From contig JAICQP010000002.1 of NCBI GenBank assembly GCA_025937815.1, forward strand, positions 1 to 52,086: a stretch of DNA of 52,086 nt. The letters run 5' to 3'. The stretch is from Gemmatimonadota bacterium (GTDB lineage: Bacteria; Gemmatimonadota; Gemmatimonadetes; JACCXV01; JAHWKZ01). This document shows, one piece after another, positions 448 through 52,086 of the stretch (position 1 is its first letter; each line of letters opens with the position of its first letter). The notes beneath the pieces are model-generated. The model made no database searches. It was not told the origin of the DNA and was given only the letters and a program-made list of their open reading frames with translations. The position numbers were made by a program, and so were the translations under genes.

Positions 448-2142
448 CTACTGCGGGGTGCCCGCCGTGGCCGGCGCTTCGGCCGAAGCGGTCGACTGGG
501 CGGCACGATCGGCGGCCGCCTCGCGCTCGAGACGCGCCAGCCGGAACAGATCGGCCAGCGTGTCGGCCTCCGACAGCAGATCCACCGCCTTCGCCAGCGG
601 AAGGTCGGCGCTCAGCACGGCCTGCCTCGCCTCGCCCTCGCCGTGATACTGGCTGATCAGCGTGTAGCGCAGGAAGTCGTTGATGTAGTCGCTCTCGGAG
701 TCGAACGCCTCGTCGGAGAAGTCGATCTCCTTGACCTCTCGAAGGTAGGCCCGGAACTCCTCGAGCACCGCCGCGTCGGGCCGGTAGTCGCGCGGGATCG
801 ATGGATGCGCGGCGCGGAAACGGACCGCGAAGGAGAAGAACGCGTTCTCCACAAAGATCTCCTGCAGGAGATCGCGCGAGACCTCGGCGATCTCGCTGGC
901 GCGAACGACGACGTCCGGCATGACGCCCCCGCCGCCGTAGACCGTGCGCCCCATGTCGGTTTGAAAGACCAGGCTGTCGGGAATATCCTGGCTCGACAGG
1001 GGGTTTCCATCGGCGTCCAGGGGCGCCTCTTCGGGCGTCCAGGGCCAGACGACCGCATTGAAATCGATCCCCAGCGTCTCGTCGCGCTGGATGCTGCGGC
1101 CGCTGGGCGTGAAGTAGCGAGCGGTAGTCAGCTTGAGGAAGTAGCCGTCGTCGAGCGGGAAGAGGCTCTGGACGAGCCCCTTGCCCCACGTCGTCTGGCC
1201 GACGAGGAGCGCGCGGTCGTGGTCCTGGAGCGCCCCGGAGACGATCTCGCTCGCCGACGCGCTCGCCCGGTTCACCAGCACGATCATGGGATGCACCGAG
1301 AAGTCATCGTTGTCGCGCGCGTTGTAAACCCGGTCCGACTCCGACATCCGGCCCCGGGTGGCCACGATCTCGGCGCCCCGTGGCAGGAACAGGTCGGTGA
1401 CCTCGATGGCCTGGTCGAGCAGGCCGCCTGGATTGTCGCGCAGGTCCAGGACCAGGCTCCGCATCCCCTGCTTTTCCAGGTCGCGCACGGCTTCGCGGAT
1501 CTCGTCTCTTCCGTGCTCGGAGAACTGCGTGAACCGGACGTAGCCGATGCCCTCCTGGAGCATGAACGCGTAGGGGACGGACGAGAGCGAGATCGGTTGG
1601 CGCTCTATCGGGACGTCGAGGGGCTCTTGCAACCCTTCGCGCGCGATCGACAGTGTGACCTCGCTGCCCCGTGGCCCTCGCAGCTCCTGCACGGCCCGCT
1701 CCTCGCTCCAGCCCTTGGTCGGTGTCCCGTCGACCGCCACGATGCGGTCCCCGGGTAACAGCCCCGCCTTGTACGCCGGAGTGCCTTCGATGGGAGAGAT
1801 CACGGTCAGCACCTGGTCGACGATGTCGATGCGGATCCCCAGGCCCTCGTAGTTCCCCTGCGTGTGGATCTGGAGATCCTCGTAGTCCTTGGGTGTGAGG
1901 AGCTGGGAGTACGGGTCGAGGGACAGGAGCATCCCGTTGAGGGCCCGCAGGTACAAGCTGTCCGAGGGGATGGAGTCGACGTACTTGTCGGAAACCTGAT
2001 GGATCGTCTCGTTCAGCAACTTGATCGCCTGATAGGGATCGTCTTCGCTGGACGCGGACAGGTCGTCGTAGATGATCCCGCCGGTCAGGACGGCGAGAAA
2101 GAACAGGACGATGAACAGGGACCCGATCCGCCTTCTGATCAT
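448..2142 (-). CDS. S41-family carboxy-terminal processing protease (Ctp/Prc-like) with PDZ domain
   Basis: 564-aa ORF with ATG at 2142. N-terminal hydrophobic anchor (LFIVLFFLAVLTGGII). PDZ-like segment GLGIRIDIV...GTPAYKAGLLPGDRIVAVDG. S41 core motifs LRDNPGGLL and VLVNRASASASEIV. The start overlaps the tmk stop (TAATG). Confidence 0.9.
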   Translation of the reverse strand: MIRRRIGSLFIVLFFLAVLTGGIIYDDLSASSEDDPYQAIKLLNETIHQVSDKYVDSIPSDSLYLRALNGMLLSLDPYSQLLTPKDYEDLQIHTQGNYEGLGIRIDIVDQVLTVISPIEGTPAYKAGLLPGDRIVAVDGTPTKGWSEERAVQELRGPRGSEVTLSIAREGLQEPLDVPIERQPISLSSVPYAFMLQEGIGYVRFTQFSEHGRDEIREAVRDLEKQGMRSLVLDLRDNPGGLLDQAIEVTDLFLPRGAEIVATRGRMSESDRVYNARDNDDFSVHPMIVLVNRASASASEIVSGALQDHDRALLVGQTTWGKGLVQSLFPLDDGYFLKLTTARYFTPSGRSIQRDETLGIDFNAVVWPWTPEEAPLDADGNPLSSQDIPDSLVFQTDMGRTVYGGGGVMPDVVVRASEIAEVSRDLLQEIFVENAFFSFAVRFRAAHPSIPRDYRPDAAVLEEFRAYLREVKEIDFSDEAFDSESDYINDFLRYTLISQYHGEGEARQAVLSADLPLAKAVDLLSEADTLADLFRLARLEREAAADRAAQSTASAEAPATAGTPQ

Positions 2143-2846
2143 TAGGTTTCCGTCCTTGAAGTTGGGATCCGCTCCGCCAGTGCTTCCAGAACCGCGTCGC
2201 GGATCGCTGCCTGCACCGTGTCTATCGGATCTGTACCATCCAAAACGACGAACCGTTCCGGTTCGTTCAGTGCCATCTCCCGGTATCCGCTCCGCACCCG
2301 GTCGTGGAACGACCGCCCGGCACGCTCGATGCGGTCGGCCGGCCGCTGTCTGGACCGCTCCGCGGACGCCTCCACCGGAACGTCGATCAGGACGGTGAGG
2401 TCGGGCGTCAGCCCGCGCGTGAAGTACGCGTTGAGCGCCTTCACGCGATCCGGGTCCAGCCCCCGCCCGTACCCCTGATACGCGACCGACGAATCGCCGT
2501 ACCGATCGAGGAGGACGACCTTACCCGCCTCGAGGCCGGGCCGGACGACCTCCGCGACGAGCTCCGCGCGGGCCGCCAGGAACAGGGCCAGCTCCGATTC
2601 GGGCGACAGATCCTCCCGCGCGGTGCGGAGGAGGAGCTCGCGGACCGCTTCCCCCACCTGCGTCGTCCCCGGCTCACGGGCCGTCACCACTTCGTGTCCC
2701 TCGTCGAGCAAGAAATCGGCCAGCCGTTCGATCTGGGTCGACTTCCCGCTCCCTTCCCCTCCCTCGAACGTCACCAGAAGGCCGGGGTCGCGTCGAGGGG
2801 CTGTCTGCACCGGCAGGAATATCGTCCGGGCGGGGGCCAAACTCAA
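2142..2846 (-). CDS. tmk: thymidylate (dTMP) kinase, canonical
   Basis: P-loop FEGGEGSGKSTQ, REPG nucleotide motif and LLDRYGDSSVAYQG (DRY) motif. The track start at 2846 is a TTG; a GTG at 2813 is an alternative. Confidence 0.9.
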   Translation of the reverse strand: MSLAPARTIFLPVQTAPRRDPGLLVTFEGGEGSGKSTQIERLADFLLDEGHEVVTAREPGTTQVGEAVRELLLRTAREDLSPESELALFLAARAELVAEVVRPGLEAGKVVLLDRYGDSSVAYQGYGRGLDPDRVKALNAYFTRGLTPDLTVLIDVPVEASAERSRQRPADRIERAGRSFHDRVRSGYREMALNEPERFVVLDGTDPIDTVQAAIRDAVLEALAERIPTSRTET

Positions 2847-2877: not shown

Positions 2878-4617
2878 CTAGATCCCGGAGTCGAAGAGAA
2901 GCCAGCCGTCCGGGTCGAGGATCACCTCCACCGGACCCTCCAGGTCGAGCGGGATCTCCGCCGTCACGCCGTCCATCTCGACCGTGTGGCGCTCGGAACG
3001 CCCTCCCGCCCGCAGCTCGACCTCGACGGCGAGCCGATAGGGCTCCCCGGACTGGCGCTGCTCGATCCGCAGCGTCCGGCCACCGCCCCCTTCCACCACC
3101 GAGGCCGACAGGACCGGCATCCCGGGCCGGACGACCCATTGCGCGAAGAACCACGCCAGCGGCCGTCCCGCCGCCTCTTCCATGATGCGCGCGAAATCGG
3201 ACGTCCACGCGGTTGTGCCCCTCAGGGTCGCGTAGTAGTCCCGCACCCCCTCGAAGAAGGCCTCGTCGCCGATCAGGCGGCGCAGCATGTGGAGCACCCA
3301 AGCGCCCTTCTCGTAGCTCTCCGCGTCGAGCAGCTCAGCGTATTCGCCGGGGCCGACGTCGGGCTGATAGATCGCCAGCGGCGCGGCGGATTCCAGCTGG
3401 CGGACGGCTGCGGCCCGCGTCCGCATCTGGCGCGCGAGCTCGGCCGGTCCGCGGCCGTGGAGGCCCCCGTGGAACTCGAAGAAGACGGCGTCGAAGTACT
3501 CGGCGAACCCCTCGGAGAGCCACAGGTGATTCCAGTCGGCCTCGGTCACCGCGTCGCCGAACCACTGGTGGACCGTCTCGTGCGCCACCAGGCTCGTCAG
3601 CCCCTCGCGCTCCTCCGCGTCGGCCGCGGTCGCTCCGCCGATCCGGCTCTGGCTGTAGAAGATGGCGCCCGGATTCTCCATGCCGCCGAACCTCGTGGCC
3701 GACTGCACGTGGGCGAGCTTCTCGTAGGGATAGGGACCGAAGAGGGAGTCGTAGAACGCCAGGATCTCGGTCGAGCGCGAGAACGCGATCGCCCCCGCGG
3801 CGGAATCCTCGGCGAAGGTCCAGTGCGTTACCTCGATCCCGTCGACCTCGCCGGCCCGCTCCACTGCGAAGTCGGCGACACCGATCACCATCCCGTACAC
3901 GGGGATCTCCGTCGACTCGGCCCAGCGGGTCCGCCTGCGCCCGTCGCCCAGATCCGCCCGCTCGACGAGCACGCCGTTCGCCACCACCTCGAGCGCGGCG
4001 GGCGCGATGACGTCGAACTCGACGGTTGCCTTGTCGGACGGGTGGTCGACCGAGGGGAACCAGTGGCGCCCGCGGTCGGCCCAGTTGTCGGCGAACGCGG
4101 AGCGGCCGCCGTGGCGATCGAGGCCCACGATGAGCCCGTCCGCCGGCACGCCGTGATACCACACCACCGTCTCGGCCCGCGCGCCCGCCGCGGTCGGGAC
4201 CTCGAGCGTCAGGCGATCACCCTCGCGCGCGAACTCCGTCGGCCGGCCGTCGACCGTCACGCTGTCGACGATCATCGCGGAACCCAAATCGAGCACGACT
4301 CGGGACAGGTCTTGCGATACCGCCTGGTACAGGACCGCCGCGCGGCCTTCGACCTGCGCGCCCTCGGCCGGCAGCTCGATCGCGATCTCGTAATGGAGGA
4401 CGTCGAGCGCCGGCTGGCGCTCGTACCCGTCGGCCGCGACCGAGGGGACTCCGAAATCGGGCTGGGACTGCGCCCGCGCCGCCGTCGCACCAAAGACAGT
4501 CGCCAGCAAAAACCCCAGCAAGGTCAGTATCACCAGGGACCGCTCAGGGCGGCGGAAATCAAGGCGCACGACGAGAGGATTCCGAGGCGTACTGAAAGGT
4601 ACGCCGCAGGAAGACAC
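2878..4617 (-). CDS. M1-family zinc aminopeptidase (aminopeptidase N-like), secreted
   Basis: GMENPG exopeptidase motif and HETVHQWFG...WLSEGFAEY (HExxH-18-E zinc site). N-terminal signal-like LVILTLLGFLLATVFGATAARAQ. The start is GTG at 4617 or GTG at 4569. Confidence 0.85.
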   Translation of the reverse strand: MSSCGVPFSTPRNPLVVRLDFRRPERSLVILTLLGFLLATVFGATAARAQSQPDFGVPSVAADGYERQPALDVLHYEIAIELPAEGAQVEGRAAVLYQAVSQDLSRVVLDLGSAMIVDSVTVDGRPTEFAREGDRLTLEVPTAAGARAETVVWYHGVPADGLIVGLDRHGGRSAFADNWADRGRHWFPSVDHPSDKATVEFDVIAPAALEVVANGVLVERADLGDGRRRTRWAESTEIPVYGMVIGVADFAVERAGEVDGIEVTHWTFAEDSAAGAIAFSRSTEILAFYDSLFGPYPYEKLAHVQSATRFGGMENPGAIFYSQSRIGGATAADAEEREGLTSLVAHETVHQWFGDAVTEADWNHLWLSEGFAEYFDAVFFEFHGGLHGRGPAELARQMRTRAAAVRQLESAAPLAIYQPDVGPGEYAELLDAESYEKGAWVLHMLRRLIGDEAFFEGVRDYYATLRGTTAWTSDFARIMEEAAGRPLAWFFAQWVVRPGMPVLSASVVEGGGGRTLRIEQRQSGEPYRLAVEVELRAGGRSERHTVEMDGVTAEIPLDLEGPVEVILDPDGWLLFDSGI

Positions 4618-4659
4618 GAGGAGTGCAACGCAGAGTTCCGTCGTCCTCAGCGGTCCCCG

Positions 4660-6036
4660 TCAATCGGCGTAGTACTCCAGTCCCAGGTGCGTTATCTGCT
4701 CCTCCCCCATCAGATGCCGGAGCGTGTTCTTCAGCTTCATCTGCTGGATGAAGAGATCGTGCTCGGGGTACAGGTTGGGCGCTGTCATCGGGCTCTTCCA
4801 GTAGAAGGAGAGCCACTCCTGGATGCCGCTCATCCCGGCGCGCGCGGCAAGGTCGAGGAACAGCGCCAGGTCGAGGACGATCGGCGCCGCGAGGATCGAG
4901 TCGCGGCACAGGAAGTCGATCTTGATCTGCATCGGGTAACCCAGCCACCCGAAGATGTCGATGTTGTCCCAGCCCTCCTTGTTGTCTCCGCGGGGCGGGT
5001 AGTAGTTGATCCGCACGACGTGCGAGATGTCGCCGTAGAGGTCCGGATAGAGCTCCGGCTGGAGGATGTAGTCGAGCACGCCGAGCTTCGACTCCTCCTT
5101 CGTCCTGAACGACTCCGGGTCGTCCAGCACCTCTCCGTCGCGGTTACCGAGGATGTTCGTCGAGTACCAGCCCTGGATGCCGAGGAGCCGGGCCTTGAAG
5201 CCGGGGGCGAGGATCGTCTTCATCAGGGTCTGGCCCGTCTTGAAGTCCTTGCCCGTGATCGGCACCTCGTTCCTGTCCGCCAGGTCGAGCAGCGCGGGCA
5301 CGTCGGCTGAAAGATTGGGAGCGCCGTTGGCGTATGGGATCCCGCTCTTGATCGCGGCGTAGGCGTAGACCATGGAGGGCGGGATCGCGTCGTCGTTCGC
5401 ATCCAGCCCCTTCTCGAAGGCCTCGATCGACGCGTGGACCGCGGTCGGCTCCAGGAAAACTTCGGTCGAGCCGCACCAGATGAGCACCAACCGGTCGCAG
5501 CCGTTCTCCCGCTTGAACTTTTCGATGTCGGCGATCAGCTGGTTGGCCCACTCGCGCTTGGAGCGGCTCTCGATCACGTACGTTCCGTTCAGCTTCTTGA
5601 CGTAACGCTGGTCGAATGCGCCCCTCATGGGCCGAATGCCGTCCAGAAAGTCCTTGAGCCCGTCGACCTGCACGCGCTCGAGGACGCCGGCGTTGGCGGC
5701 CGACTCGTAGGCCGTGTCCGGAAAGATGTCCCAGCCTCCGAACACCAGCTGGTCGAGGTCCGCGAGCGGGACGAACTCCTTGATTCTGGGGACGCGCTTC
5801 TCGGGGCGGCCGCCCAGCCGGATCGTGCCCATCTGGGTCAGCGATCCGAACGGCTTGGCCGAGCCGCGGCGCACGGCTTCCACCCCCGCGATGAACGTCG
5901 TCGCCACCGCGCCCATGCCTGCCAGGAGCACGCCGAGCTTACCGCCGGCCGGAGCGATCTCTGTGGGCTCCGGACGCACCTGTTGGAGCGGCTTGGGGCC
6001 CGGTTTCCGCTTCTCTGCCTTCATTCTCCTATTCAT
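4660..6036 (-). CDS. ino1: myo-inositol-1-phosphate synthase
   Basis: The translation from ATG 6036 (MNRRMKAEKRK...) carries MIPS-type motifs: GVLLAGMGAVATTF, LIWCGSTE, YANGAPNLS, STNILGNRDG, CRDSILAAP. The 111 upstream codons of track ORF 4660..6369 are R/G/P-rich read-through. The ATG overlaps the upstream stop as ATGA (6033-6036). Confidence 0.88.
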   Translation of the reverse strand: MNRRMKAEKRKPGPKPLQQVRPEPTEIAPAGGKLGVLLAGMGAVATTFIAGVEAVRRGSAKPFGSLTQMGTIRLGGRPEKRVPRIKEFVPLADLDQLVFGGWDIFPDTAYESAANAGVLERVQVDGLKDFLDGIRPMRGAFDQRYVKKLNGTYVIESRSKREWANQLIADIEKFKRENGCDRLVLIWCGSTEVFLEPTAVHASIEAFEKGLDANDDAIPPSMVYAYAAIKSGIPYANGAPNLSADVPALLDLADRNEVPITGKDFKTGQTLMKTILAPGFKARLLGIQGWYSTNILGNRDGEVLDDPESFRTKEESKLGVLDYILQPELYPDLYGDISHVVRINYYPPRGDNKEGWDNIDIFGWLGYPMQIKIDFLCRDSILAAPIVLDLALFLDLAARAGMSGIQEWLSFYWKSPMTAPNLYPEHDLFIQQMKLKNTLRHLMGEEQITHLGLEYYAD

Positions 6037-12016: not shown

Positions 12017-12910
12017 ATGCGCCGCTCGCTCACGATCCGGGTCGTCCAGCACCGGCCGGTGCTCGGAGATCTGGCGGCCAACCTCGCCGACCACCGGGCC
12101 CGGGCGCGGGCGGCGGCCGAGGAGGGGGTGGACCTCGTCCTCTTCCCCGAGCTGTCGCTGACCGGCTACGGGCTCGGCGACCTGGTCGACGCGGTGGCGC
12201 TCGATCCGGCGCACCCGCTCTGGCCGGAGATGCTCGCCCTCTCCGAGGACGTCGACGTGGCGCTGGGGCTCGTGGAACGAGGCGACCAGGGCTACCTCTA
12301 CAACTCCTGCGCTTATCTCCACCGCGGGGAGCTCCTCCACTGCCACCGGAAGACGTACCTGCCGACCTACGGCGCGTTCGACGAGGGTCGCTTCTTCTCC
12401 CCTGGGCGGGCCATCGAGACGTTCGACGCTCCCTGGGGCCGCGCGGCGCTGGTGGTCTGCGAGGAGTCCTGGCACCCGGCGGTCGCGCACGGGGCCGCCA
12501 TGCAGGGGGCGGACGTCCTGCTCGTGATCTCGAACTCCCCGGGACGCAACCCGCGGGAGGGAGACTGGACGAGCCAGCGGGGCTGGCGCGCGAACCTCTC
12601 CGCCTACGCGCGCCTCTATGCGGTATGGGTCGCCTACGCCAATCGGGTGGGCTACGAGGAGGGGTTCGTCTTCGGCGGCGGCAGCGCGGTGATCGCGCCC
12701 GACGGCCGCGAGCTGCTCGTGGCGGACCCGCTCGAGCCCGAAGAGCTGACGGCGGTGCTCGATGCGGGAGAGCTTCGCCGCGCGCGGATCGCCAACCCGG
12801 CGCACGGGATCGAGCGCCACGAGATGCTGATCGAGGCGCTGGACCGGGCCGGCCGCCGCGAGCCCCGCGGAGCGCGCATGCCCGGCGAGCGCGAGGAAGC
12901 CCGCCCTTGA
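12017..12910 (+). CDS. carbon-nitrogen hydrolase (nitrilase-superfamily glutaminase module of NAD synthetase)
   Basis: Glu-Lys-Cys triad contexts LFPELSLTGY, HRKTYLP and LVVCEESW. It lies immediately upstream of, and overlaps, the NAD synthetase domain gene. Confidence 0.85.
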   Translation: MRRSLTIRVVQHRPVLGDLAANLADHRARARAAAEEGVDLVLFPELSLTGYGLGDLVDAVALDPAHPLWPEMLALSEDVDVALGLVERGDQGYLYNSCAYLHRGELLHCHRKTYLPTYGAFDEGRFFSPGRAIETFDAPWGRAALVVCEESWHPAVAHGAAMQGADVLLVISNSPGRNPREGDWTSQRGWRANLSAYARLYAVWVAYANRVGYEEGFVFGGGSAVIAPDGRELLVADPLEPEELTAVLDAGELRRARIANPAHGIERHEMLIEALDRAGRREPRGARMPGEREEARP

Positions 12911-13749
12911 GCACGGCGACCGCCATCGACAGGGTTCCCCTCCTCGATGCCGACCTCGCCGTTCGCGCGCTGGCGCTGTCGCTCAGCCAGACGCTCGACG
13001 ACGCCGGCCGGAGCGGGTTCGTGGTCGGGCTTTCGGGCGGCGTGGACAGCGCGCTCGCCGCCGCCATCGCGGTCCGCGCGTCGGGCCCGGCTTCCGTGCA
13101 CGCCTTCCACTTGCCGGCCACGGAAAGTGCGACGGAAAGCGAGCGGATCGCGCGCGCGGTCGCTGAGCACCTCGGGATCGAGCTCGCGGTGGTCCCCCTC
13201 GCCGCCCTCGTCGACGGCGCCCCGCTGGCAGCGCCCGAGGCCGCGCGCCGCGGCAACTTCGCCGCTCGGATGCGAATGGCGATCCTCTACGACCGGGCCG
13301 CCGCCCTCGACGCGCTCGTCCTCGGCACGAGCAACAAGAGCGAGATCGCGCTGGGGTACACGACGCTATGGGGCGACATGGCGGCGGACTGCTGGCCGCT
13401 CGGCGACCTGTACAAGACCCAGGTCCTCGATCTCGCGCGCGCGGTCGGGCTGCCGGGCGCCGTGGTCGAGCGCCCACCGTCCGCCGAGCTCTGGGACGGG
13501 CAGACGGACGAAGGCGAGCTGGGGTTCACCTACGGTCAGGCGGATCTCGTCCTGTGCGCTTACCTTGAAGGCAGGCGCCGGCCGGAGGAGATCGCCGGCC
13601 CGGGGATCGACGGGGACACGGTCGCGCGCGTCCTGGACCGCGTGCGGCGGAATGCGTTCAAGCGCCGCCTGCCGTGGATTCCCAAATTGACCACGCGAAC
13701 CGTGGGTCACGATTTCCTGCATCCGCGCGCGTGGCGCGGGCCGGCCTGA
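12907..13749 (+). CDS. nadE: NAD+ synthetase (synthetase/PP-loop domain)
   Basis: PP-loop GLSGGVDSAL, then LVLGTSNKSEIALGYTTLWGDMA and PLGDLYKTQV. The only plausible start is TTG at 12907, overlapping the nitrilase stop (TTGA). The upstream part of track ORF 11944.. is R/G/P-rich read-through. Confidence 0.85.
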   Translation: MSTATAIDRVPLLDADLAVRALALSLSQTLDDAGRSGFVVGLSGGVDSALAAAIAVRASGPASVHAFHLPATESATESERIARAVAEHLGIELAVVPLAALVDGAPLAAPEAARRGNFAARMRMAILYDRAAALDALVLGTSNKSEIALGYTTLWGDMAADCWPLGDLYKTQVLDLARAVGLPGAVVERPPSAELWDGQTDEGELGFTYGQADLVLCAYLEGRRRPEEIAGPGIDGDTVARVLDRVRRNAFKRRLPWIPKLTTRTVGHDFLHPRAWRGPA

Positions 13750-23773: not shown

Positions 23774-25354
23774 ATGCAGGACAGGCGCTCCGCTCCCCCC
23801 GACCTCTCCCCGGGCTTTCCCCTGCGGGTCGGCGTCGTCGACATGGGCTCCAACGCGATCCGGTTCGTGATCGCGGATTTCATCGCGCCCACTACATGGA
23901 CCCCGCTGGTCAGCGAGCGGATACCCGTCCGGCTCGCCGATCGCGCATCGGAGACCGGCCTCCTGTCCGAGGAGGCGATGGATGCGGCCGTGGCCGTCAT
24001 GGCGCGATTCCGGGACGCCCTGGCGGAGCGGGACGTCCGGCACTACCGGGCGGTCGCGACGAGCGCGGTCAGGGAGAGCGGGAATCGGCGCGCGCTGGTA
24101 AAGAGGGTGCGGGAGCGAACGGGTCTCCGGCTGGAGGTGATCTCCGGCGCCGAGGAGGCACGCCTCGTGCACCAGGCCGCACGGGTCCGGGTTCCTCTGG
24201 GGAACAGGCCCTGGCTGATGGCCGATCTGGGCGGCGGCAGCCTCGAGATCGCGATCGTCGACGGCGAGGGGATCAAGACCCTGGAGTCGTTCGCCATCGG
24301 CACGGTCCGCCTGCTGGAGGAGTTCCGCAGCGAAACCGCCGGGGCGGATAGAATCAGGAGGCTCCTCGACGAATACGTCGCAGGACTCCGATTCGACTCC
24401 TTCGGGGCACGTCCAGAGGTAGCGGGATACATCGCGACCGGCGGCAACATCGACGACCTTGCCCGCGTGGCGGGCGCCAGCCCCGACGATGACGGAGTCT
24501 ACCTCCTGGACCTGGGCGACCTGAAGAAGGCGATCGAGACGCTGAACGAAATGTCGGTCGAAGAGCGAATCGAGGAGTTCGAGCTCCGCGAGAACCGCGC
24601 CGACGTGATCGTGCCGGCGGCGATGATCTATGCGCGGCTCGCCGAGCGCTTCGGAGTCTCCCGGATCCATGTCCCCAACGTGGGCGTCAAAGAGGGCGCG
24701 ATGATCGACCTGGTCGACGTCGTCACGGGTGGCGAAGGACACGGAAGACGGCGCGCGCGCGAGGTCGTGGCCGGAGCCGTGGCGCTGGGCCGCCGCTTTC
24801 ATTTCGAGGAGCAGCACGGTGTCCACGTGGCCCGCCTCTCGGAGCTCCTGTTCGACGCTCTCGCGGACGACCATCACCTCGACGAGAGGGATCGCGAGAT
24901 CCTCGTCGCCGCGGCGATCCTCCACGACATAGGCCAGCGGATCGCCTACAAGCGCCATCACAAGCACTCCTACTACCTGATATCGGAATCGGAGCTTCCC
25001 GGCCTCGACCTGGACGAAGTCGAGCTCGTCGCCAACGTCGCCCGCTACCACCGGCGCGCCGACCCCTCCACGAAGCACCCTCCCTACGAGGCGCTGTCCG
25101 AGGAGGATCAGGAGCGCGTCACCAGGCTCTCGGCTATCCTGCGGGTCGCCGACGCCTTCGACCGGGAGCACGTCCAGAACGTCCGCGACATCGCGATCCA
25201 GCTCGACGACGAGCACATGGAGATCGAGCTCGAGGGAGAAGGCGACTTCGAGCTCGAGCGCTGGGCGCTGGAGCGCAAGAAGGGGCTGTTCGAGAAGACA
25301 TTCGGTCTCGAGATCGTCCTCGCCAACGAGGCGGTGAGAAGTGATTTCCCCTGA
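23774..25354 (+). CDS. ppx: exopolyphosphatase / pppGpp phosphohydrolase (Ppx/GppA family) with C-terminal HD domain
   Basis: ASKHA-fold motifs [15 protein letters not shown] and [12 protein letters not shown] region ILHDIG...[12 protein letters not shown] at 23774. Confidence 0.88.
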
Positions 25355-25364
25355 GGGCCACGAC

Positions 25365-26099
25365 ATGCCGGGTCGCCTGATCGCCGTCGAAGGTGTGGAC
25401 GGCTCGGGCAAGTCGACGCAGATCGACCTGCTGCACAAGTGGCTCGTCGGACTGGGGTGCCGCGTCTTCTTCAGCGAGTGGAACTCCAGCCCGCTGGTCA
25501 TGGAAGCCACGAAAAAGGCCAAGCGCCGGCTGCTCCTGACCCCCACGACCTTCTGCCTCATCCACGCGACGGACTTCGCCGACCGCTACGAGCGGCAGAT
25601 CCTGCCCATGCTGAGGGCGGGCTACATCGTCCTCTGCGACCGGTACGTCTACACATCCTACGCGCGCGACAAGGCGCGGGGCTGCGACCCGGCCTGGCTG
25701 CGCGAGGTCTACGGCTTCGCCCAGCCTCCGGACATCACATTCTGGTATCACGTTCCGGTGGAAACCGCGCTGGACCGGCTGACGAAGTCCCGCAAAGAGC
25801 CCAACTACTTCGAGGCCGGAATGGATCTCGGCCTCTCGCTGGATCTTCGCGAGGGCTTCCGGATCTTCCAGGACCGCATCACGCGCAACTACGCCGAGAT
25901 GGTGGAGGAGTTCGGGTTCGTGACCATGGATGCCACGCTCCCCATCCACCACCAGCAGCAGGCCGCTCGCAAGCTCATCCAGGAGCGCATCGACCTGAGC
26001 GCATATCCGTCCCGCATCGAGCGCGTGGTGCACGACCAGTACGGCATCCCGCCGCCCGTCTTCGAGGAGGACCTGATCGACGCCGAGGGCGAGTGGTGA
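25365..26099 (+). CDS. thymidylate-kinase-like P-loop kinase, paralogue 1 (canonical Walker A)
   Basis: VEGVDGSGKSTQ and LCDRYVYTSYARD (DRY). It lacks the REPG motif of true Tmk. ATG at 25365 has GAGGG 8 nt upstream; GTG at 25341 is an alternative that overlaps the ppx end. Confidence 0.75.
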   Translation: MPGRLIAVEGVDGSGKSTQIDLLHKWLVGLGCRVFFSEWNSSPLVMEATKKAKRRLLLTPTTFCLIHATDFADRYERQILPMLRAGYIVLCDRYVYTSYARDKARGCDPAWLREVYGFAQPPDITFWYHVPVETALDRLTKSRKEPNYFEAGMDLGLSLDLREGFRIFQDRITRNYAEMVEEFGFVTMDATLPIHHQQQAARKLIQERIDLSAYPSRIERVVHDQYGIPPPVFEEDLIDAEGEW

Positions 26100-26137
26100 G
26101 CCACCGGACGTACCGCCACACGATCCCCGGCATCGAC

Positions 26138-26803
26138 ATGGAGGAGCTGAGCGGCCTGCTCATCGTCGTCGAAGGACCGGACTCGTCCGGGCGCTCGACC
26201 CAGATCTGGCTCCTGTCGCGCTGGCTCGAGCAGCTGGGGTTCGCCGTCGAGCAGATGGGCCTCAAGCGCAGCAAGCTCGTGGCCAACGAGCTCGAGCAGG
26301 CCAAGAACGGCAACGTGATGAGCCCGCGCACGATGGCGCTCTTCTACGCGACCGATTTCTACGACCAGCTCGAGAACCGCATCCTTCCCGCGCTGCGCGC
26401 CGGTTCCGTCGTGCTCGCCGACCGCTACATCTACACGCTCATGGCGAGGGACATGGTGCGGGGCGCCCCGTTCGAGTGGCTCGAGCCGCTGTATTCGATG
26501 GCGGTCGTCCCGGACGCCGTGTACCTGCTCGACACCTCGGCCGAGAACATCCTCGACCGCACCCTCTCGTCCCGCGGTGAGCTCGACTACTGGGAGTCCG
26601 GCATGGACCTGGGCCTTGCGCGGGACTGGTACCGGAGCTTCATGGTGTACCAGGAGGCCATGCGCGGGCAGTTCGAGCCGCTGATGTCCCGTTTCTCGAT
26701 CGACCGCGTCGACGGCGACCGCTCGATTCTGGACATCCACGAAGACCTGAAGTCCAGGATCGACCGGATCCTCACCGGATACGCGAACCCCCGTCAGGAC
26801 TAG
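26138..26803 (+). CDS. thymidylate-kinase-like protein, paralogue 2 (Walker A Lys replaced by Arg)
   Basis: VEGPDSSGRSTQ and LADRYIYTLMARD. It shares the paralogue-specific motifs ATDF..., ILPxLRAG and Y[FW]E[AS]GMDLGL with the upstream gene. The start is ATG 26138 or GTG 26096 (GTGA overlap with the upstream stop). Confidence 0.7.
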   Translation: MEELSGLLIVVEGPDSSGRSTQIWLLSRWLEQLGFAVEQMGLKRSKLVANELEQAKNGNVMSPRTMALFYATDFYDQLENRILPALRAGSVVLADRYIYTLMARDMVRGAPFEWLEPLYSMAVVPDAVYLLDTSAENILDRTLSSRGELDYWESGMDLGLARDWYRSFMVYQEAMRGQFEPLMSRFSIDRVDGDRSILDIHEDLKSRIDRILTGYANPRQD

Positions 26804-46645: not shown

Positions 46646-47497
46646 ATGGCTTGCATTCGGTTCCCCGCCACGTCCGTGGCCGCCCTCCTCGCGATCGGCT
46701 GCGCCACGGTGGAGATCGACGATCTGTCGACCCCGATGCCGGTCCCGGCCGGGTCCTGCGTGACGGTCGGGTTCCTGGGAGGGCTGGACCGATGGGACGA
46801 CGGGTCGAAGGGAGCGCGCCGCCTGGCGCTCGCGCTGCGGGACCCCGCCGGCCGGCGCTATGCCGAGACCTTCGAGAACCGGCGTCTCGACGTGGCCCGG
46901 TCGTTCGTCCTGCAGGCGCTCGACGCCGACCAGGACGGCGCACTGACGCCCGCTGAGCTCCAGCGGGCGCGCTGGGTGATCTACGGGCAGAGCCTCGGCG
47001 GCGGCTCCGCCGTCGGGCTCGCCTGGCGGCTTGAGTCGCTCGGCGTTCCCGTGGAGCTCCTCGTCCTCCTGGACAGCGTGAGCTGGTTCGACGAGCCGAT
47101 TCCGCCGAACGTGGGGCTCGCGGCCGCCCTGTATCAGGACGAGGGATGGGTCATCCGCGGGGAGTCCGATCCCCGGTTGTCCGACCCGCGTCGCACGCGG
47201 CGGACCCTCGAGGAGTTCGACTACGACCGTCCGCCGGGGTCCACGATCTCGCTGCGCGGCCTCCCGTGGACCAAGCTGGTCCTGCGGGTGGCGCACAGCC
47301 GCATGGATCGTGATCCTCGCGTGTGGGAGCGGGCTCGCCATCTCGCGCGCGCGGCCTGCGAAGACCCCGGGAGCGAAACGGCGACGTCCGCTTCCTCGCC
47401 GAACCTCAGAACCGCTGGCCCTTCGCCTCCCGCAGATGGCTTCCCACCGGACGAATCCTGGACCACATCGTCCAGAAGTAGATCGCGAACCCGATGA
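46646..47497 (+). CDS. lipoprotein with alpha/beta-hydrolase-like GxSxG motif
   Basis: MACIRFPATSVAALLAIGC lipobox. WVIYGQSLGGGSAV is a nucleophile-elbow-like motif. The C-terminal roughly 30 codons overlap the convergent membrane-protein gene. Function is unknown. Confidence 0.45.
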   Translation: MACIRFPATSVAALLAIGCATVEIDDLSTPMPVPAGSCVTVGFLGGLDRWDDGSKGARRLALALRDPAGRRYAETFENRRLDVARSFVLQALDADQDGALTPAELQRARWVIYGQSLGGGSAVGLAWRLESLGVPVELLVLLDSVSWFDEPIPPNVGLAAALYQDEGWVIRGESDPRLSDPRRTRRTLEEFDYDRPPGSTISLRGLPWTKLVLRVAHSRMDRDPRVWERARHLARAACEDPGSETATSASSPNLRTAGPSPPADGFPPDESWTTSSRSRSRTR

Positions 47498-47861
47498 CCT
47501 GTGCGACCCCGGCGGCCGTGACGATCCAGCCGAGCCATTCCGGGCCCGCCGCGCTTCGCGCAACCTCGCCCGCGATCCGGACCGCGGTGGCCACCGTCAG
47601 CGTCCAGTAGGCGGCGTCGATCCGCTCCGGTCGGTACCGGGTGTCGCCCTCCGGCGGCTTCGGGAAGAGCCACAGCGCCACCCCCAGAATCAGGAACATC
47701 ACGAACCCGAGCTGGACGGCGTGCGCGTGGGCGGACACGAGATACGGCCCCGGCCAGGATCCGCCGATCTCGCGCTCGACGAGCATCCACGCGCCGATCA
47801 GCAGCCCGGCGAACAGGAAGACGATCCCGGTCTTGATGAAACGTCGAACGTTGGTGTGCAC
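47406..47861 (-). CDS. small 4-TM membrane protein with His-rich helix (SAHAHAVQLGF)
   Basis: Four hydrophobic helices. GTG at 47861 is the first start that precedes TM1. It lies divergent to the hemerythrin-fusion gene. The family was not recognised with certainty (helices reminiscent of haem-copper oxidase subunit I fragments). Confidence 0.5.
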   Translation of the reverse strand: MHTNVRRFIKTGIVFLFAGLLIGAWMLVEREIGGSWPGPYLVSAHAHAVQLGFVMFLILGVALWLFPKPPEGDTRYRPERIDAAYWTLTVATAVRIAGEVARSAAGPEWLGWIVTAAGVAQVIGFAIYFWTMWSRIRPVGSHLREAKGQRF

Positions 47862-48035: not shown

Positions 48036-49034
48036 ATGAATCCGGCTCACCTCCACCTCATGCTGAACCATGTACCGCTGTTCGGAGCGCTGACGGTCAC
48101 GATCCTCTGCGGGCTGGCTCTCCTGAGGCGCCAGCAGGGCCTCGCCCGCGCCGGACTCCTGGTGGCGGTTCTCACGGCGACGGTGGGAGTCGTCGTGTAC
48201 TTGACCGGCGAACCCGCCGAGGAACTGGTCGAGGACCTGCCGGGCGTTTCCGAGGCCGTGCTCGAGACACACGAGGAGATCGCTCTCGTCGCCACTGTCG
48301 TGCTCGGCGCATTCGGCGTCCTGGCGCTCGGCGGCCTGATCGCGTTCAGGCACGGCGTCACGATGGGATTCACGCGGGCGCTTCTCGCGGCATCGTTCGT
48401 GCCACTCGCCGCAATGGCCTACACGGCATACCTGGGCGGGCAGGTCCGACACTCCGAGATCCGCCCCCGTGGCGGGAGCGGGGAGGCGCGGGAGAGCCGG
48501 GATGACGACGACGCGCTTCGCCTGGGCCCGTCGATGGCGCTCGCCGCGTCCCTGTCGCCTCTGGCCTTCGCGCGGGACACCGTGGACCTCATCCCGCCTT
48601 CCATTCTCGAAGAGCATGAGGCGCTGCGGGCCGCCCTCGAGCGGGTGAGCGACGAGCCCGGAAAGCTGGGGGAGGCCGGCCGGGCCCTGGCGGCGACCAT
48701 GGAGCCTCACTTTGCCAAGGAGGAGGAGTTGGCGCTCCCTCCGCTGGGGGTACTTCCCGCCCTAGCGGCAGGCGAGGCCGTTCCGGATCCCGCGCGCATC
48801 ATCGATCTCGCCTCGCGGCTCGAGGCCGAGCTGCCGACGATGTTGGAAGAGCACCGGGAAATCGGGGCCGCGATCGAGGTCCTCATCGAGGCGGCCAAAT
48901 CTGCGAACCGGCCACAGTACGCGGAGCTCGGAGAGGAGATCGGGCACCACGCCCGATCGGAAGAGGAGGTCACCTATCCGGCGGCGATCGTCGTCGGCCG
49001 CTACCTGCAGAGCCGTGTCGGAGTGGGCGAGTAG
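48036..49034 (+). CDS. membrane protein (4 TM, DUF2231-like) fused to a C-terminal hemerythrin-like (HHE cation-binding) domain
   Basis: ATG at 48036 is preceded by AAAGGAG. The N-terminus MNPAHLHLMLNHVPLFG plus further TM helices is followed by an acidic linker. Then come His/Glu motifs EEHEALR, EPHFAKEEE, EEHREI and GHHARSEEE, typical of hemerythrin-like four-helix bundles. Confidence 0.65.
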   Translation: MNPAHLHLMLNHVPLFGALTVTILCGLALLRRQQGLARAGLLVAVLTATVGVVVYLTGEPAEELVEDLPGVSEAVLETHEEIALVATVVLGAFGVLALGGLIAFRHGVTMGFTRALLAASFVPLAAMAYTAYLGGQVRHSEIRPRGGSGEARESRDDDDALRLGPSMALAASLSPLAFARDTVDLIPPSILEEHEALRAALERVSDEPGKLGEAGRALAATMEPHFAKEEELALPPLGVLPALAAGEAVPDPARIIDLASRLEAELPTMLEEHREIGAAIEVLIEAAKSANRPQYAELGEEIGHHARSEEEVTYPAAIVVGRYLQSRVGVGE

Positions 49035-49043
49035 CGGGGCCTT

Positions 49044-50771
49044 CTAGGACGGTTGACGCCGCTGCCAGGCGCGCCAGCCGAGCCACGCGGCGAGCAGAAC
49101 GGCCAGGACCATGACCGGGCCGGTGAACAGCATGAACATCGTGCGCCGGCCGGTGGCGCGCGCGTCCCGGAGCTGGTGCTCCTCGTCCCGCAGTCGCGCC
49201 AGGTGACCCAGGACGTCCGCATAGCCGTACCACCACGCGTAGTCGGGGCTCATGTGGAACGCCCCCTTGTAGGATTTCAGATTCGAGAAGAAGAACATGT
49301 CGAAGTACTCGCGCTCGACGGCGGTGACGTCGTAGTAGAGTCCCGCGGGCCAGTGCGCGGCGAGGCCGCTCGGCAGCTCAACGGCGGAGAACTCGGGGCC
49401 CGGCAGTAGCCCGGCGGCTCGCCACCCGTGGCTCGGCTCGATCAGCCCGTCGTCGTAGAGCGCGGCCAGGATGTCCCGCGCTTCGATGACGAGCGCGTCC
49501 CCGGCGAGCTTGTGCGCGTCGGCCGACCGCAGGTAGCCGCGGGCCTTGTCCTCGGAGTGGCAGGTCATGCACACCCGCACCATCTCGAACCGCTTCGCCC
49601 GGTTCTCCGGCTGGTCGAGGATGTCGGTCAGCTCGCCGCCCGCGGCCTGCGTCCCCATCCCCCACACGATCTTCCGACTCATGTTGTGGCTCGAGTAGCG
49701 CGACCCGTCCTCTCGCACGTAGACCATGTGGCAGTAGGCGCAGGTCGGCGCGTCCCACTGGGCCTCGGCGAGCGGCGCGGTCCAGTCCCACTCGGCGCCG
49801 CGCGCGACGTAGATCGACCCGTGCTTCGAGCTCATGTAGGCCTCGTAGTTGGGGTGATCGGGGCCCATGTGGCAGGTGTAGCACGCCTCGGGCTTGCGCG
49901 CCTCGACGAGATTGAAGGAGTGCCGCGTGTGGCAGGCGATGCAGCCGTTGCGATAGACGAGGCTGCTCGTGTCGATGTACTTCTGCTGCTCCTCGCTCCA
50001 GTACTCCGCGTCGGACGCCCCGGCCTGCGCGTGGCACGGATCGCAGCCCATCTCCATGACCTTGCGCGGCATCTGCGCGTAGTTCGGCACGCCGATGTTC
50101 CGCTCCCAGTTGATGCCCAGGTCGCCCGGACCGGGACCGTAGGAGTGGCCGGCGTCCAGCACGTGCTCCTGGTAGATCTGAGCGTGACAGCCGGCGCACG
50201 TCGTCTCGGGAACGCGCCCCTGTGAGGCCATGATCTTGTCGTGGTCGGTGCCGTGGCAATCGGCGCAGGTCATGGTCGGGCGCTGCTCGACGCGCGGATT
50301 CTGTGCGCCGGGCCTGCCCATCGCGCTCGATTCGAACTGGCGGACCACCGTCGCGTGGAGCCCGCGATGGCATTCCGCGCAGGTCGCCGGATCCTGGACC
50401 CCGCTCGGCAGGTCGGCGCGGAGGCGAGGCAGGTCGCGCGGGAGGTCCTGCAGATACTCGTGGATCTCCTCGGCGTCCTCCTCGCTGACGACCTCCTCGG
50501 GGAACGCGGGCATGATGTCGCGGGGATGTCGAATCTGACCGAGGAACGCGTCGATGGGCAGCGGCGTCCCGGCGAGCGCGGGGCCTACACCCCCGCGCCC
50601 GCTGGCGCCGTGACAGCCCATACAGCCACGCGAGATGTAGAGCCGCTCGCCGGAGTCCTCATCGTCGTCGCGGTCCTGGGCCAGCGCCCCGGACGCGGCG
50701 AGGAGCGTCAGGCAGACGATCGAGAATCCGATTCGAGAGAATCCGCCACTCTGCTTCCTCGCCGGCTCCAC
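49044..50771 (-). CDS. hao: hydroxylamine-oxidoreductase-family octahaem cytochrome c fused to an N-terminal monohaem class I cytochrome c and a C-terminal TM anchor
   Basis: Nine CxxCH motifs: CMGCH, CAECH, CADCH, CAGCH, CDPCH, CIACH, CYTCH, CAYCH, CMTCH. Strong by-eye similarity to Nitrosomonas HAO around CIACHTRHSF...RKPEACYTCH...YMSSKHG...APTCAYCHM...CMTCHSE. The N-terminal domain has CMGCH...DIMPAF (Met ligand). The C-terminus MFMLFTGPVMVLAVLLAAWLGW is a TM helix. GTG at 50771 is 12 nt after the nirK stop. Confidence 0.88.
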   Translation of the reverse strand: MEPARKQSGGFSRIGFSIVCLTLLAASGALAQDRDDDEDSGERLYISRGCMGCHGASGRGGVGPALAGTPLPIDAFLGQIRHPRDIMPAFPEEVVSEEDAEEIHEYLQDLPRDLPRLRADLPSGVQDPATCAECHRGLHATVVRQFESSAMGRPGAQNPRVEQRPTMTCADCHGTDHDKIMASQGRVPETTCAGCHAQIYQEHVLDAGHSYGPGPGDLGINWERNIGVPNYAQMPRKVMEMGCDPCHAQAGASDAEYWSEEQQKYIDTSSLVYRNGCIACHTRHSFNLVEARKPEACYTCHMGPDHPNYEAYMSSKHGSIYVARGAEWDWTAPLAEAQWDAPTCAYCHMVYVREDGSRYSSHNMSRKIVWGMGTQAAGGELTDILDQPENRAKRFEMVRVCMTCHSEDKARGYLRSADAHKLAGDALVIEARDILAALYDDGLIEPSHGWRAAGLLPGPEFSAVELPSGLAAHWPAGLYYDVTAVEREYFDMFFFSNLKSYKGAFHMSPDYAWWYGYADVLGHLARLRDEEHQLRDARATGRRTMFMLFTGPVMVLAVLLAAWLGWRAWQRRQPS

Positions 50772-50783
50772 GCCCTCAAGCTA

Positions 50784-51824
50784 TCAATGTCCCATTCCCG
50801 CGGCGAGTTCGACGCCCCCGACCTGGAGAACGCCGACGGCGCCCTTGTCGGCGTCGGCGAAGGCATGGGTCACGAATGCATACGCCCCGGCGCCGCTCGC
50901 ACCCTCCTCGAACACGGTCTCGAACACAGCCCCACCGCCCGCAGGGACGCCGTACGTCTGAACGCCCGTCAGCGCGTGCGCCGGATCGCCATCCGGGTAC
51001 ACGCGATCGAACACCGCGCCCACAACGTGGAACTCGCTCGACAGGTTCGGGCCGGCGTTCACCACGAAGAACCGCACGCGATCCCCCACATCGGCTGTCA
51101 GCGGATGATCCTTGTACTGGAACGCCTTCCCGTTGAACACCACGTAGCTCGCGTCACGCGAGCGGGCGGCCTCGTAATCCGGTCCTGCCGGCACGTCCGC
51201 TCCCCCCGGGGCGATCTCGGTCTCCCCCGCGGCGGGATAGAACTCGCTCTGGATCAGAACGAACTCCTTGTCGGCTTCCGTTCCCCAACCGTCTTCTGGA
51301 TCGACGACGATAGCCAGGTACATGCCCTGCATGATGTGGAGCAGCACCGGTGGGGTGCCGCAGTGGACCATGAACGCGCCCGGGTCCTTCGCCACGAACT
51401 CGAAGGTGAGTTCCTCGTTCGGACCGATCGTCCGGAACGCCTCGTTCATCGGGATCCGCGCCGAGTGGAGGTCGATCGAGTGGCCCATCGGGGATTCGTT
51501 GACCAGCGTGATGCGCACCGTGTCGCCCTGGCGGACCCGCAGGACCGGGCCCGGTACCGTGCCGCCGAACGTCCAGCCCTCGTACGTCACTCCGTCCGCG
51601 ATCTCGATCGTCTCGTGCGTCATCGGGATACGGAACTCCTTGATGCGCGCAGCCGATGGCTTCGGTGCCGTGGCGTCGAACGCCGGCACGAGGGCGGTTC
51701 GCACCGCTCCGAAGTCGATTGCCTCCACGGCGGCGCCCCCGCGGCGCGCCGCCGTCATGGCGACCCCTGCGACTACCGTCGCGGACAGAGCCGCCGTTAC
51801 CCATACCGCTCTCCGTACAGACAT
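50784..51824 (-). CDS. nirK: copper-containing nitrite reductase (NirK-type two-domain cupredoxin)
   Basis: T1/T2 Cu ligand contexts GHSIDLH (HxxDxH), HCGTPPVLLHIMQGM (H-C-x8-H-x4-M), FHVVGAVFD and THAF. Signal peptide MSVRRAVWVTAALSATVVAGVA. ATG at 51824 is preceded by GGAGGAATCG. Confidence 0.88.
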   Translation of the reverse strand: MSVRRAVWVTAALSATVVAGVAMTAARRGGAAVEAIDFGAVRTALVPAFDATAPKPSAARIKEFRIPMTHETIEIADGVTYEGWTFGGTVPGPVLRVRQGDTVRITLVNESPMGHSIDLHSARIPMNEAFRTIGPNEELTFEFVAKDPGAFMVHCGTPPVLLHIMQGMYLAIVVDPEDGWGTEADKEFVLIQSEFYPAAGETEIAPGGADVPAGPDYEAARSRDASYVVFNGKAFQYKDHPLTADVGDRVRFFVVNAGPNLSSEFHVVGAVFDRVYPDGDPAHALTGVQTYGVPAGGGAVFETVFEEGASGAGAYAFVTHAFADADKGAVGVLQVGGVELAAGMGH

Positions 51825-51987
51825 CGATTCCTCCAGCCGTGGATGAGAATGCATTTCAACCATGGGCCGGAACCTAGGAAGGCCGGAGCCTCGATGGTGT
51901 CGGGACCGTGTCGGAGCGTGGGGTAGGAGTCTGGCACCGCCGCTGTGGGGAAAGGCCCTACGGGCGAGGCGAGGGCGAAGGGGAGCA

Positions 51988-52086
51988 TGGCGGGAACGTG
52001 TGGGAATCGAACCCACCCCGGGCGCGACGTGCGCGCCCGATGACGGTTTTGAAGACCGCAGGGGCCACCAGACCCCTTCCGCTCCC
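51988..52086 (-). tRNA. selC: tRNA-Sec (anticodon UCA)
   Basis: 99 nt on the minus strand. Acceptor GGGAGCG(G)/(A)CGTTCCC followed by G-CCA. 6-bp D-stem GGGGTC/GGCCCC with a 4-nt loop. Anticodon stem GCGGT/ACCGT with loop CTTCAAA (TCA). Long variable arm GGGCGCG-CACGT-CGCGCCC. T-arm GTGGG-TTCGATT-CCCAC. The 5' end coincides with the window end. Confidence 0.85.

Follow-up and report, generated by a model that had tools for sequence, protein, structure and literature searches.

Does a copper nitrite reductase gene that directly precedes a gene of the hydroxylamine oxidoreductase (HAO) family belong to a pathway for oxidizing hydroxylamine, or to one for reducing nitrogen oxides? The question is raised by contig JAICQP010000002.1 of a Gemmatimonadota bacterium (assembly GCA_025937815.1), the whole of which (52,086 bp, 65-73% G+C) was analyzed and is referred to below as the window. 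The minus strand of its right-hand end carries, in order, a tRNA-SeC gene, nirK (50784..51824) and a HAO-family gene (49044..50771), here called hao and its product Hao. We read hao, with a probability of about 0.5, as a gene that has been inserted into a NirK/eNOR cluster leading from nitrite to N2O and whose product is an accessory enzyme reducing nitrite, NO or hydroxylamine; a nitrification-type module at this locus appears unlikely. An earlier note on the same DNA had left the direction of catalysis open, a choice which we consider prudent.

The assignment of Hao to its family was addressed by domain and PDB matches of the called open reading frame (575 aa, GTG start). The protein matches PF13447 at 1.9e-48, and the PDB entries matching its multihaem domain below 1e-10 are all HAO, HOX, HDH or HAO-like proteins. 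Its nearest solved relatives (6H5L, 4FAS and 4N4J) are all members of the HAO family, and a family-profile search scored Kustc0458 (6H5L) at 1.1e-52 as against 3e-37 for the HAO of N. europaea (NeHAO). These matches bear out the earlier placing of the nirK partner in the HAO family and not in MccA or ONR, and we judge Hao to be a true HAO-family octahaem protein. It contains nine CxxCH motifs. A signal peptide (residues 1-32, ending in GALA before QD, with cleavage at about Ala32) is followed by a class-I cytochrome c domain (residues ~33-115), which holds one of the nine (CMGCH at 50-54) as well as Met87 within IMPAFP. The other eight lie in a HAO-type octahaem domain (residues ~120-540), at 131, 169, 192, 243 (catalytic haem 4), 277, 297, 344 and 401. 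The C-terminus consists of a hydrophobic membrane helix (544-568) and then basic residues; with the signal peptide and this helix, Hao should be tethered to the membrane on its periplasmic side. The Asp-His pair above the catalytic haem (Asp305-His306 in the motif HMGPDHP, codons 49854..49859, minus strand, located by alignment with NeHAO and Kustc0458) aligns with Asp267-His268 of NeHAO and is invariant in 20 family members.

By the accepted criterion, what marks the oxidative type in sequence is a Tyr forming a cross-link with haem 4 in the adjacent subunit (PMC8042395, PMC12758564). In Hao the loop at this site, HMSPDYAWWYGYADV, is invariant in the subfamily; within its DYAWWYGY, alignments place Trp513-Trp514-Tyr515 at codons 49227..49235 (minus strand). 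A profile-profile alignment (hhalign) of the family with 14 Tyr-type sequences paired Trp513 with NeHAO Tyr467 and Gly516 with Gly470, and MAFFT gave the same pairings. In NeHAO (Y467/G470) and in the HOX of K. stuttgartiensis (KsHOX) the cross-link Tyr stands three residues before a conserved Gly, which aligns with Hao Gly516, with the Gly of WWWG in Kustc0458 and with the Gly of a motif HWYGW found in a neighboring clade. In HWYGW, this Gly rule puts His at the key site, and His at that site has been reported for reductive enzymes (PMC12758564). A third line of evidence comes from BpMHAO, in whose model, superposed on NeHAO, Trp782 occupies the position of Tyr467 (bioRxiv 10.64898/2026.07.28.741245). 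In a Brocadia homologue (L051; L-numbers denote surveyed loci), two independent distances, from the haem-4 His (+283) and to the C-terminus (33 residues), identify Trp782 with the first Trp of SWWWG, and this Trp aligns gap-free to Hao Trp513. DYAWWYGY also aligns gap-free with DVSWWWGQ of Kustc0458, with which Hao has HMGPDHP, IW(G/R)MG and D-x-x-W-W-x-G in common; at the position of NeHAO Tyr334, Hao has Gly.

On the strength of the profile-profile alignment, the Gly rule and the BpMHAO structural mapping, we consider it likely that the canonical cross-link Tyr is absent from Hao and that Trp513 lies at its site. The route from NH2OH through NO to nitrite, which the earlier note had offered, is accordingly disfavored, with Trp513 most likely at the cross-link site and motifs resembling those of Kustc0458. 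A first reading from HMMER had made the enzyme Tyr-retaining and oxidative; it was set aside after these same three analyses and is kept below as a rival. For IhOCC (4QO5), no alignment of the C-terminal loop was obtained that would show the WYG Tyr in a cross-link-free crystal structure.

The gene upstream of hao encodes a 346-aa protein with an N-terminal export signal, recognized from open reading frame calls and from domain and PDB matches. From its first GTG the NirK-like frame spans 50784..52016; the ATG at 51824 is the likely start, since the resulting 346 aa is the length given by gene callers in other assemblies. Alignment recovered the ligands and catalytic residues, in agreement with the earlier statement that NirK is intact with all of its copper-ligand contexts. 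The type-1 ligands are His115, Cys155, His163 and Met168, which align with those of Geobacillus NirK, and the type-2 ligands are His120, His154 and His320, with catalytic Asp118 and His266. They lie in the contexts GHSIDLH (His115, Asp118, His120), VHCGTPPVLLHIMQGM (His154, Cys155, His163, Met168), EFHVVG (His266) and VTHAF (His320). The top solved relatives are the Geobacillus enzymes 3X1E and 3WKQ (E ~1e-61 over the full length), followed by further class II or III enzymes such as N. europaea 4KNS and AniA 1KBV, so that the best solved matches are all copper nitrite reductases. The score against TIGR02376 (185.8 bits) lies under the equivalog cut-off of 296.3; we attribute this to a class I bias of the model, which was presumably built mainly on class I enzymes. 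The protein was accepted as a functional, two-domain, class II (Geobacillus/AniA-like) copper nitrite reductase.

Between the two genes, direct reading confirmed the reported same-strand junction of 12 nt (TAGCTTGAGGGC, 50772..50783, minus strand): the TGA stop of nirK is followed by TAG, and the next GTG, at 50771, opens hao. The genes share reading frame as well as strand, and neither the pair nor the sequence following it showed a terminator-like site. The short gap, the common strand and the lack of terminator-like sites suggest that nirK and hao are probably co-transcribed; they are probably also translationally coupled. An identical Hao protein in the same gene arrangement is present in six other contigs of independent assemblies, and the arrangement is repeated in a relative (L001) whose Hao is 94% identical; this recurrence shows that the pair is not an assembly artefact.

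The window terminates exactly at the tRNA-SeC gene (anticodon TCA; 51988..52086, minus strand, ARAGORN), 163 nt before the start of the downstream nirK. Two contigs of the same organism, L141 (GCA_025937245.1) and L143, were used to extend the locus past this end. The extended order is haem-copper oxidase subunit I, SenC, two small open reading frames and a NosD-like beta-helix protein (the part at 1..3744 of L141 and 3..4625 of L143), then tRNA-SeC, nirK and hao, followed by a hemerythrin gene on the opposite strand and a gene for a 151-aa protein. The pair is thus the distal part of a longer cluster that starts beyond the contig end, and not the compact two-enzyme module that had been proposed. 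Subunit I reads GLGHSAQQIN, with Gln for Tyr, where oxygen reductases read GHPxVY; in the same alignment an A-type oxidase has SHPAVYI at this position. The Tyr-to-Gln change is the recognition criterion for eNOR (PMC8756737), one member of which has been demonstrated to be an NO reductase (PMC11214002). An assignment to sNOR, considered from the SenC neighbor, was rejected, as the Tyr-to-Gln signature would fit eNOR instead. Subunit I is cut off by the ends of the same-organism contigs; a cupredoxin (COX2-like) subunit II gene lies just upstream of subunit I in L004, L009 and L011.

On the other side of the pair, the plus strand encodes at 48036..49034 a membrane protein of 332 aa whose C-terminal part is a hemerythrin (HHE) domain (PF01814, 3.8e-09). 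Its gene converges with hao, the stop codons being 9 nt apart, and its product weakly matches the RIC (iron-sulfur repair) family. The gene is found in the same position in L001 and L141-L145, and hemerythrin genes adjoin hao or nirK in L001, L006, L039, L098, L133 and L134. Beyond it, at 47406..47861 on the minus strand, lies the gene of the 151-aa protein, a four-helix membrane protein that resembles a fragment of haem-copper oxidase subunit I, its motif SAHAHAVQLGF being similar to helix X. It falls under the Pfam COX1 threshold and matched no NCBIfam model; its more than 2,000 homologues bear names including 'uncharacterized protein involved in response to NO' and 'cbb3-type oxidase subunit 1'. 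In many related loci it is the gene that immediately follows nirK (L083, L086, L087, L097, L098 and L104), and on account of this position the protein appears to be an undescribed partner of NirK. Genes for a histidine kinase of the HisKA_3 type, with a FixL-like PAS domain, and for a NarL/LuxR-type response regulator stand before nirK in many relatives (L005, 1916..3670; L006, 3581..4243; further in L085, L089, L094 and L096), which suggests that nirK loci are under O2- or NO-responsive control; the cluster is probably switched on at low oxygen. Taken together, the eNOR-type oxidase, SenC, the NosD-like protein, the hemerythrin and the NO-response-like neighbors point to a copper-dependent route from nitrite through NO to N2O, and not to a nitrification context.

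The subfamily to which Hao belongs comprises at least 786 clusters at 90% identity, the top 120 of which are all at least 68% identical to it. Below a cut of 60%, identity falls sharply to ~30% for other HAO clades. When loci were scanned with one genome per species and a Hao identity of at least 60%, 43 were recovered, every one of them from a metagenome-assembled genome. The hosts are Gemmatimonadota (Longimicrobiales and Gemmatimonadales), Rokubacteria/Methylomirabilota, Binatia, Eisenbacteria, Dadabacteria, Krumholzibacteriia, Thermoanaerobaculaceae and Polyangiaceae. JGI names dozens of subfamily members 'hydroxylamine dehydrogenase', while NCBI uses 'multiheme c-type cytochrome'. In the literature only generic 'hao' entries in surveys of metagenome-assembled genomes were found, with no description of the subfamily or of a nirK-hao operon.

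A neighbor-joining tree of the Hao C-terminal half (262 columns, computed without epsilon-Hao, HDH and IhOCC) placed the subfamily in a deep clade of its own, apart from the NeHAO-like and Kustc0458-like clades. The clade beside it is archaeal/Kryptonia, of His type with the HWYGW motif, and is treated as reductive (PMC12758564). The ninth haem, contributed by the cytochrome c fusion, was seen only in the subfamily and in none of 25 other HAO-family sequences compared, a set that included neither epsilon-Hao nor IhOCC; C-terminal anchors are widespread across the family. The spacer between the haem-4 and haem-5 motifs measures 29 residues in the subfamily, 8-24 in the neighboring clade and 5 in the NeHAO and Kustc0458 types, and the 29-residue form is an extreme of a trait common to the neighboring His-type clade.

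The generality of the nirK-hao pairing was assessed from both genes. Among the 43 hao loci, nirK lies within 6 kb of hao in five, all from the closest Gemmatimonadota relatives, with Hao 84-94% identical. Even among these the arrangement varies: the 12-nt junction is the same in L001, whereas over 110 nt separate the two genes in L004, the order in L002 is nirK-PrpD-ComA-hao, and in L005 and L006 hao is followed by the PAS kinase, the NarL-type regulator and nirK. From the nirK side, 61 metagenomic loci with a NirK identity of 48-94% were surveyed, and hao was within 4 kb in three of them (L082, L084 and L081). In L081 the hao between nirK and the 151-aa gene is truncated (3288..3704): it encodes the cytochrome c domain and one haem motif, the first, and then reaches a stop codon. 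This close relative has thus naturally lost both hao and the hemerythrin gene. Since relatives have a unit of nirK and the small-protein gene, which in the window lies beyond hao and the hemerythrin gene, hao appears to have been inserted there. The adjacency, whose frequency the earlier note had wished to see surveyed, is thus not common; the pairing is recent and lineage-specific, and is a property neither of the hao subfamily nor of the NirK clade.

What recurs beside the subfamily is the eNOR-type haem-copper oxidase, its only recurrent neighbor, which was found in six of the 43 loci, other phyla included. A Pfam census of 134 neighboring open reading frames in 37 loci gave no conserved partner except COX1-family proteins (5 loci) and hemerythrins (2 loci). 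The same tRNA-SeC stands upstream of nirK in L001, L002, L004, L141 and L143. L004 has two copies of it (4567..4667 and 12831..12931; 101 nt, 98% identical, 8,264 nt apart), and the stretch between them encodes a hydrolase, an acyltransferase-like protein and a P-type ATPase besides nirK and hao. That nirK-hao might be carried on an integrative island at tRNA-SeC was considered and rejected, no integrase being present between the two copies; the duplication could account for the assembly break at the window end.

According to the reading that we favor, an uncultured soil Gemmatimonadota bacterium would have a copper-dependent gene cluster for handling NO (partial denitrification), of which the locus forms the distal end, with a self-contained HAO-family gene inserted directly behind nirK. 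NirK would reduce periplasmic nitrite to NO, and the eNOR-type enzyme encoded upstream would take NO to N2O. Exported Hao, anchored by its C-terminal helix on the outer face of the membrane, would draw electrons from the cytochrome c pool via its fused class-I cytochrome c, a counterpart of the dihaem Kustc0457. With the haem-Tyr cross-link absent and Trp513 at its site, it would act reductively on nitrite, NO and/or hydroxylamine, and may provide a further sink for the reactive products that arise around NirK, or detoxify them. The order of the genes, the domains and the copper and haem ligands of their products, their families, their distribution and the wider cluster are shown directly; we infer the missing cross-link, the catalytic direction, the substrates, the co-transcription and the electron source. 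Precedents for such activities exist: Kustc0458 turns nitrite into NO and can reduce NO and NH2OH as well (PMC8042395), epsilon-Hao reduces nitrite and NH2OH (cited in PMC8042395), and BpMHAO reduces NH2OH (bioRxiv 10.64898/2026.07.28.741245).

Several points weigh against this reading. HMMER, with single sequences as well as with profiles, sets the invariant Tyr515 under NeHAO Tyr467 and KsHOX Tyr415, although its posterior confidence is low across the active-site loop, and this Tyr, only two residues on from Trp513, leaves some doubt about the assignment of the latter. An AlphaFold2 monomer of Hao from a 20-sequence alignment (mean pLDDT 51, pTM 0.41) is too poor for loop geometry or a search by fold. 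The tree, with its 262 columns and the three groups left out, is crude, and experiments exist on no member of the subfamily. In 37 of the 43 hao loci there is neither nirK nor a haem-copper oxidase nearby, from which it follows that the core function of the subfamily would be independent of both. Should Hao make NO from nitrite, it would be partly redundant with NirK, and the two genes may be merely co-located.

This last point can be developed into an explanation of its own, which we hold to be somewhat unlikely: a mobile single-gene hao came to lie behind nirK, with which it shares promoter and regulation (for example by low oxygen), and acts on a substrate of its own. It is consistent with the absence of a conserved neighborhood in 37 other loci, with the variable gene order among close relatives (L002; L005 and L006), with the truncation of hao in L081, and with the nirK-side survey, in which hao within 4 kb is confined to the closest relatives L082 and L084 and the L081 remnant. 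What appears to be the ancestral unit, nirK followed by the 151-aa gene, is interrupted by hao and the hemerythrin gene in this lineage alone, which fits it as well. However, hao has remained near nirK despite several rearrangements in the clade, and the recurrence of its subfamily beside eNOR-type oxidases in other phyla argues for a shared NO-related role rather than chance. Another proposal, the least probable of those that we considered, is that Hao is mainly a membrane-tethered electron donor which serves NirK via its class-I cytochrome c and is itself no enzyme of nitrogen oxides. NirK lacks a fused cytochrome or cupredoxin, the window encodes no further c-type cytochrome, and the L081 remnant retains just the cytochrome c domain; that remnant may, however, be a mere pseudogene, most family members have no nirK nearby, and the catalytic features of Hao (the haem-4 motif, the Asp-His pair and the active-site loop) are invariant.

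The remaining alternative is oxidative. Tyr515 would form a P460-type cross-link and Hao would oxidize NH2OH to NO, which NirK would oxidize to nitrite or eNOR would reduce to N2O; hydroxylamine would thereby be detoxified, or the bacterium would carry out heterotrophic nitrification without AMO. All family members examined have Tyr515, the HMMER pairing favors it, the Asp-His pair is kept, and a high-potential cytochrome c domain could hand electrons to a terminal oxidase. On the other hand, the profile-profile alignment, the Gly rule and the SWWWG mapping put Trp513 at the cross-link site, and the same Tyr is present in the HWYGW motif of a clade regarded as reductive. The window has no amo/pmo, haoB, c554 or cM552 genes, and the genomic context is of the denitrification type. 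We therefore regard an oxidative module as distinctly improbable, and its particular form in which a Tyr515 cross-link of new geometry lets Hao make NO from NH2OH and the co-translated NirK convert this NO to nitrite as highly improbable. If that form were true, the pair would be a two-gene version, in a non-nitrifying soil heterotroph, of the disputed step of bacterial nitrification in which HAO yields NO and the nitrite comes from a third enzyme.

Elsewhere in the window, genomic partners of the ammonia-oxidizer type are absent. No predicted protein other than Hao carries a CxxCH motif, and hence no c554 or cM552 lies within the 52 kb; no polytopic AMO-subunit-like protein was found among the predicted proteins, and Pfam annotation of the predicted genes gave no AMO, haoB, c554 or cM552. 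The earlier observation that these are missing from the 52 kb stands after all three checks; amo, nor and nos genes are likewise absent from the window. The description of the region as a heterotroph's housekeeping DNA is also upheld by Pfam, which identified ClpB, GatCAB, seryl-tRNA synthetase, UvrD and RecG, together with polyphosphate and nucleotide-sugar genes and glycosyltransferases. The window further contains three thymidylate-kinase-family genes (25341..26803, plus strand; 2142..2846, minus strand), two of them in tandem and adjoining Ppx/GppA and PPK2 polyphosphate genes.

Metagenomes from soil and groundwater contain the subfamily in great abundance, with over 780 clusters at 90% identity, in phyla that include Acidobacteriota and Myxococcota besides Gemmatimonadota, Rokubacteria/Methylomirabilota, Binatia, Eisenbacteria and Dadabacteria. 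As its members are routinely labelled 'hydroxylamine dehydrogenase', surveys count them as nitrification potential, a quantity which the label is likely to inflate in soil metagenomes. The main value of the finding is practical: a 'hao' that is abundant in soil is probably mistaken for a marker of nitrification. If Hao is indeed a Tyr-less reductase tied to NirK and eNOR, such scores are wrong in direction, and the enzyme belongs with the production of NO, N2O or ammonium from nitrite in aerated soils. The nirK-hao operon and its natural hao-less relative offer a concrete system for probing the function of the subfamily.

Among known systems, the best solved match to Hao is Kustc0458 of the Kustc0458/Kustc0457 complex (HAOr) of Kuenenia stuttgartiensis (6H5L; PMC8042395). 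Both have the eight-haem HAO fold, Trp in D-x-x-W-W-x-G and, most likely in the case of Hao, no Tyr at the cross-link position, and both contain HMGPDHP and IWxMG. Kustc0458 works with a His/Met cytochrome c at haem 1, of which the fused class-I cytochrome c of Hao would be the counterpart; the cytochrome c is monohaem and N-terminally fused in Hao, and in Kuenenia it is the separate dihaem Kustc0457. The two enzymes are ~39% identical over the C-terminal half and fall, by the crude tree, in separate clades. Unlike Kustc0458, Hao is membrane-anchored, with a haem-4/haem-5 spacer of 29 residues instead of 5 and a Tyr where Kustc0458 has its third Trp, and it occurs in a soil Gemmatimonadota and not in an anammox bacterium. 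NeHAO (4FAS, 1FGJ) and KsHOX (4N4J) belong to the same family and have the same eight-haem arrangement and Asp-His pair as Hao, and NeHAO also ends in a hydrophobic segment. Hao is ~32% identical to NeHAO, most likely lacks the cross-link Tyr (Trp513) and has Gly for Tyr334; compared with the oxidative HAO/HOX enzymes it has the extra cytochrome c domain, and the window lacks haoB, c554 and cM552 genes.

Epsilon-Hao of Campylobacterota and IhOCC of Ignicoccus (4QO5) are Tyr-less HAO relatives that take nitrite or hydroxylamine to ammonium. The cross-link, absent from these enzymes, is predicted to be absent from Hao too, and all three are encoded by stand-alone genes in hosts that are not ammonia oxidizers; the match of IhOCC to Hao covers residues 275-351 only. 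The only other known pairing of a two-domain NirK-fold cupredoxin with a Tyr-less HAO is BpMHAO (kuste2479-type) of anammox bacteria, which has Trp at the Tyr position, as Hao most likely does, and whose HAO domain is a hydroxylamine reductase. BpMHAO is a single polypeptide, whereas the window encodes its two proteins in separate genes. Its copper domain is of the small-laccase type, with a trinuclear center and no nitrite reductase activity, whereas the window protein is a NirK with T1 and T2 sites. The Brocadia locus L051 (4585..7353) is of the BpMHAO type, a two-domain multicopper oxidase fused to a Tyr-less HAO domain, and its copper domain is 23% identical to the window NirK. The class II NirKs (GtNiR 3X1E/3WKQ, AniA 1KBV and N. 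europaea 4KNS) have the same copper ligands and catalytic residues as the window NirK, which differs from them in scoring below the TIGR02376 cut-off, in having no fused cytochrome or cupredoxin domain, and in belonging to a clade whose usual downstream partner is the 151-aa mini-oxidase-like membrane protein.

In ammonia oxidizers the corresponding clusters are hao-haoB-cycA-cycB, ncgABC-nirK and norSY-senC. These bacteria and the window organism thus both bring together a HAO-family protein, NirK and a Tyr-less CuA-type haem-copper enzyme with SenC. However, the window is without AMO, haoB, c554 and cM552, its HAO is of a different type, its hao and nirK are adjacent where those of ammonia oxidizers are separate, and the haem-copper enzyme of its organism carries the eNOR-type Tyr-to-Gln change. 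Set beside these systems, what is new here is a member group of a known enzyme family that varies in architecture and gene context, together with a lineage-specific operon, and not a new kind of system or pathway.

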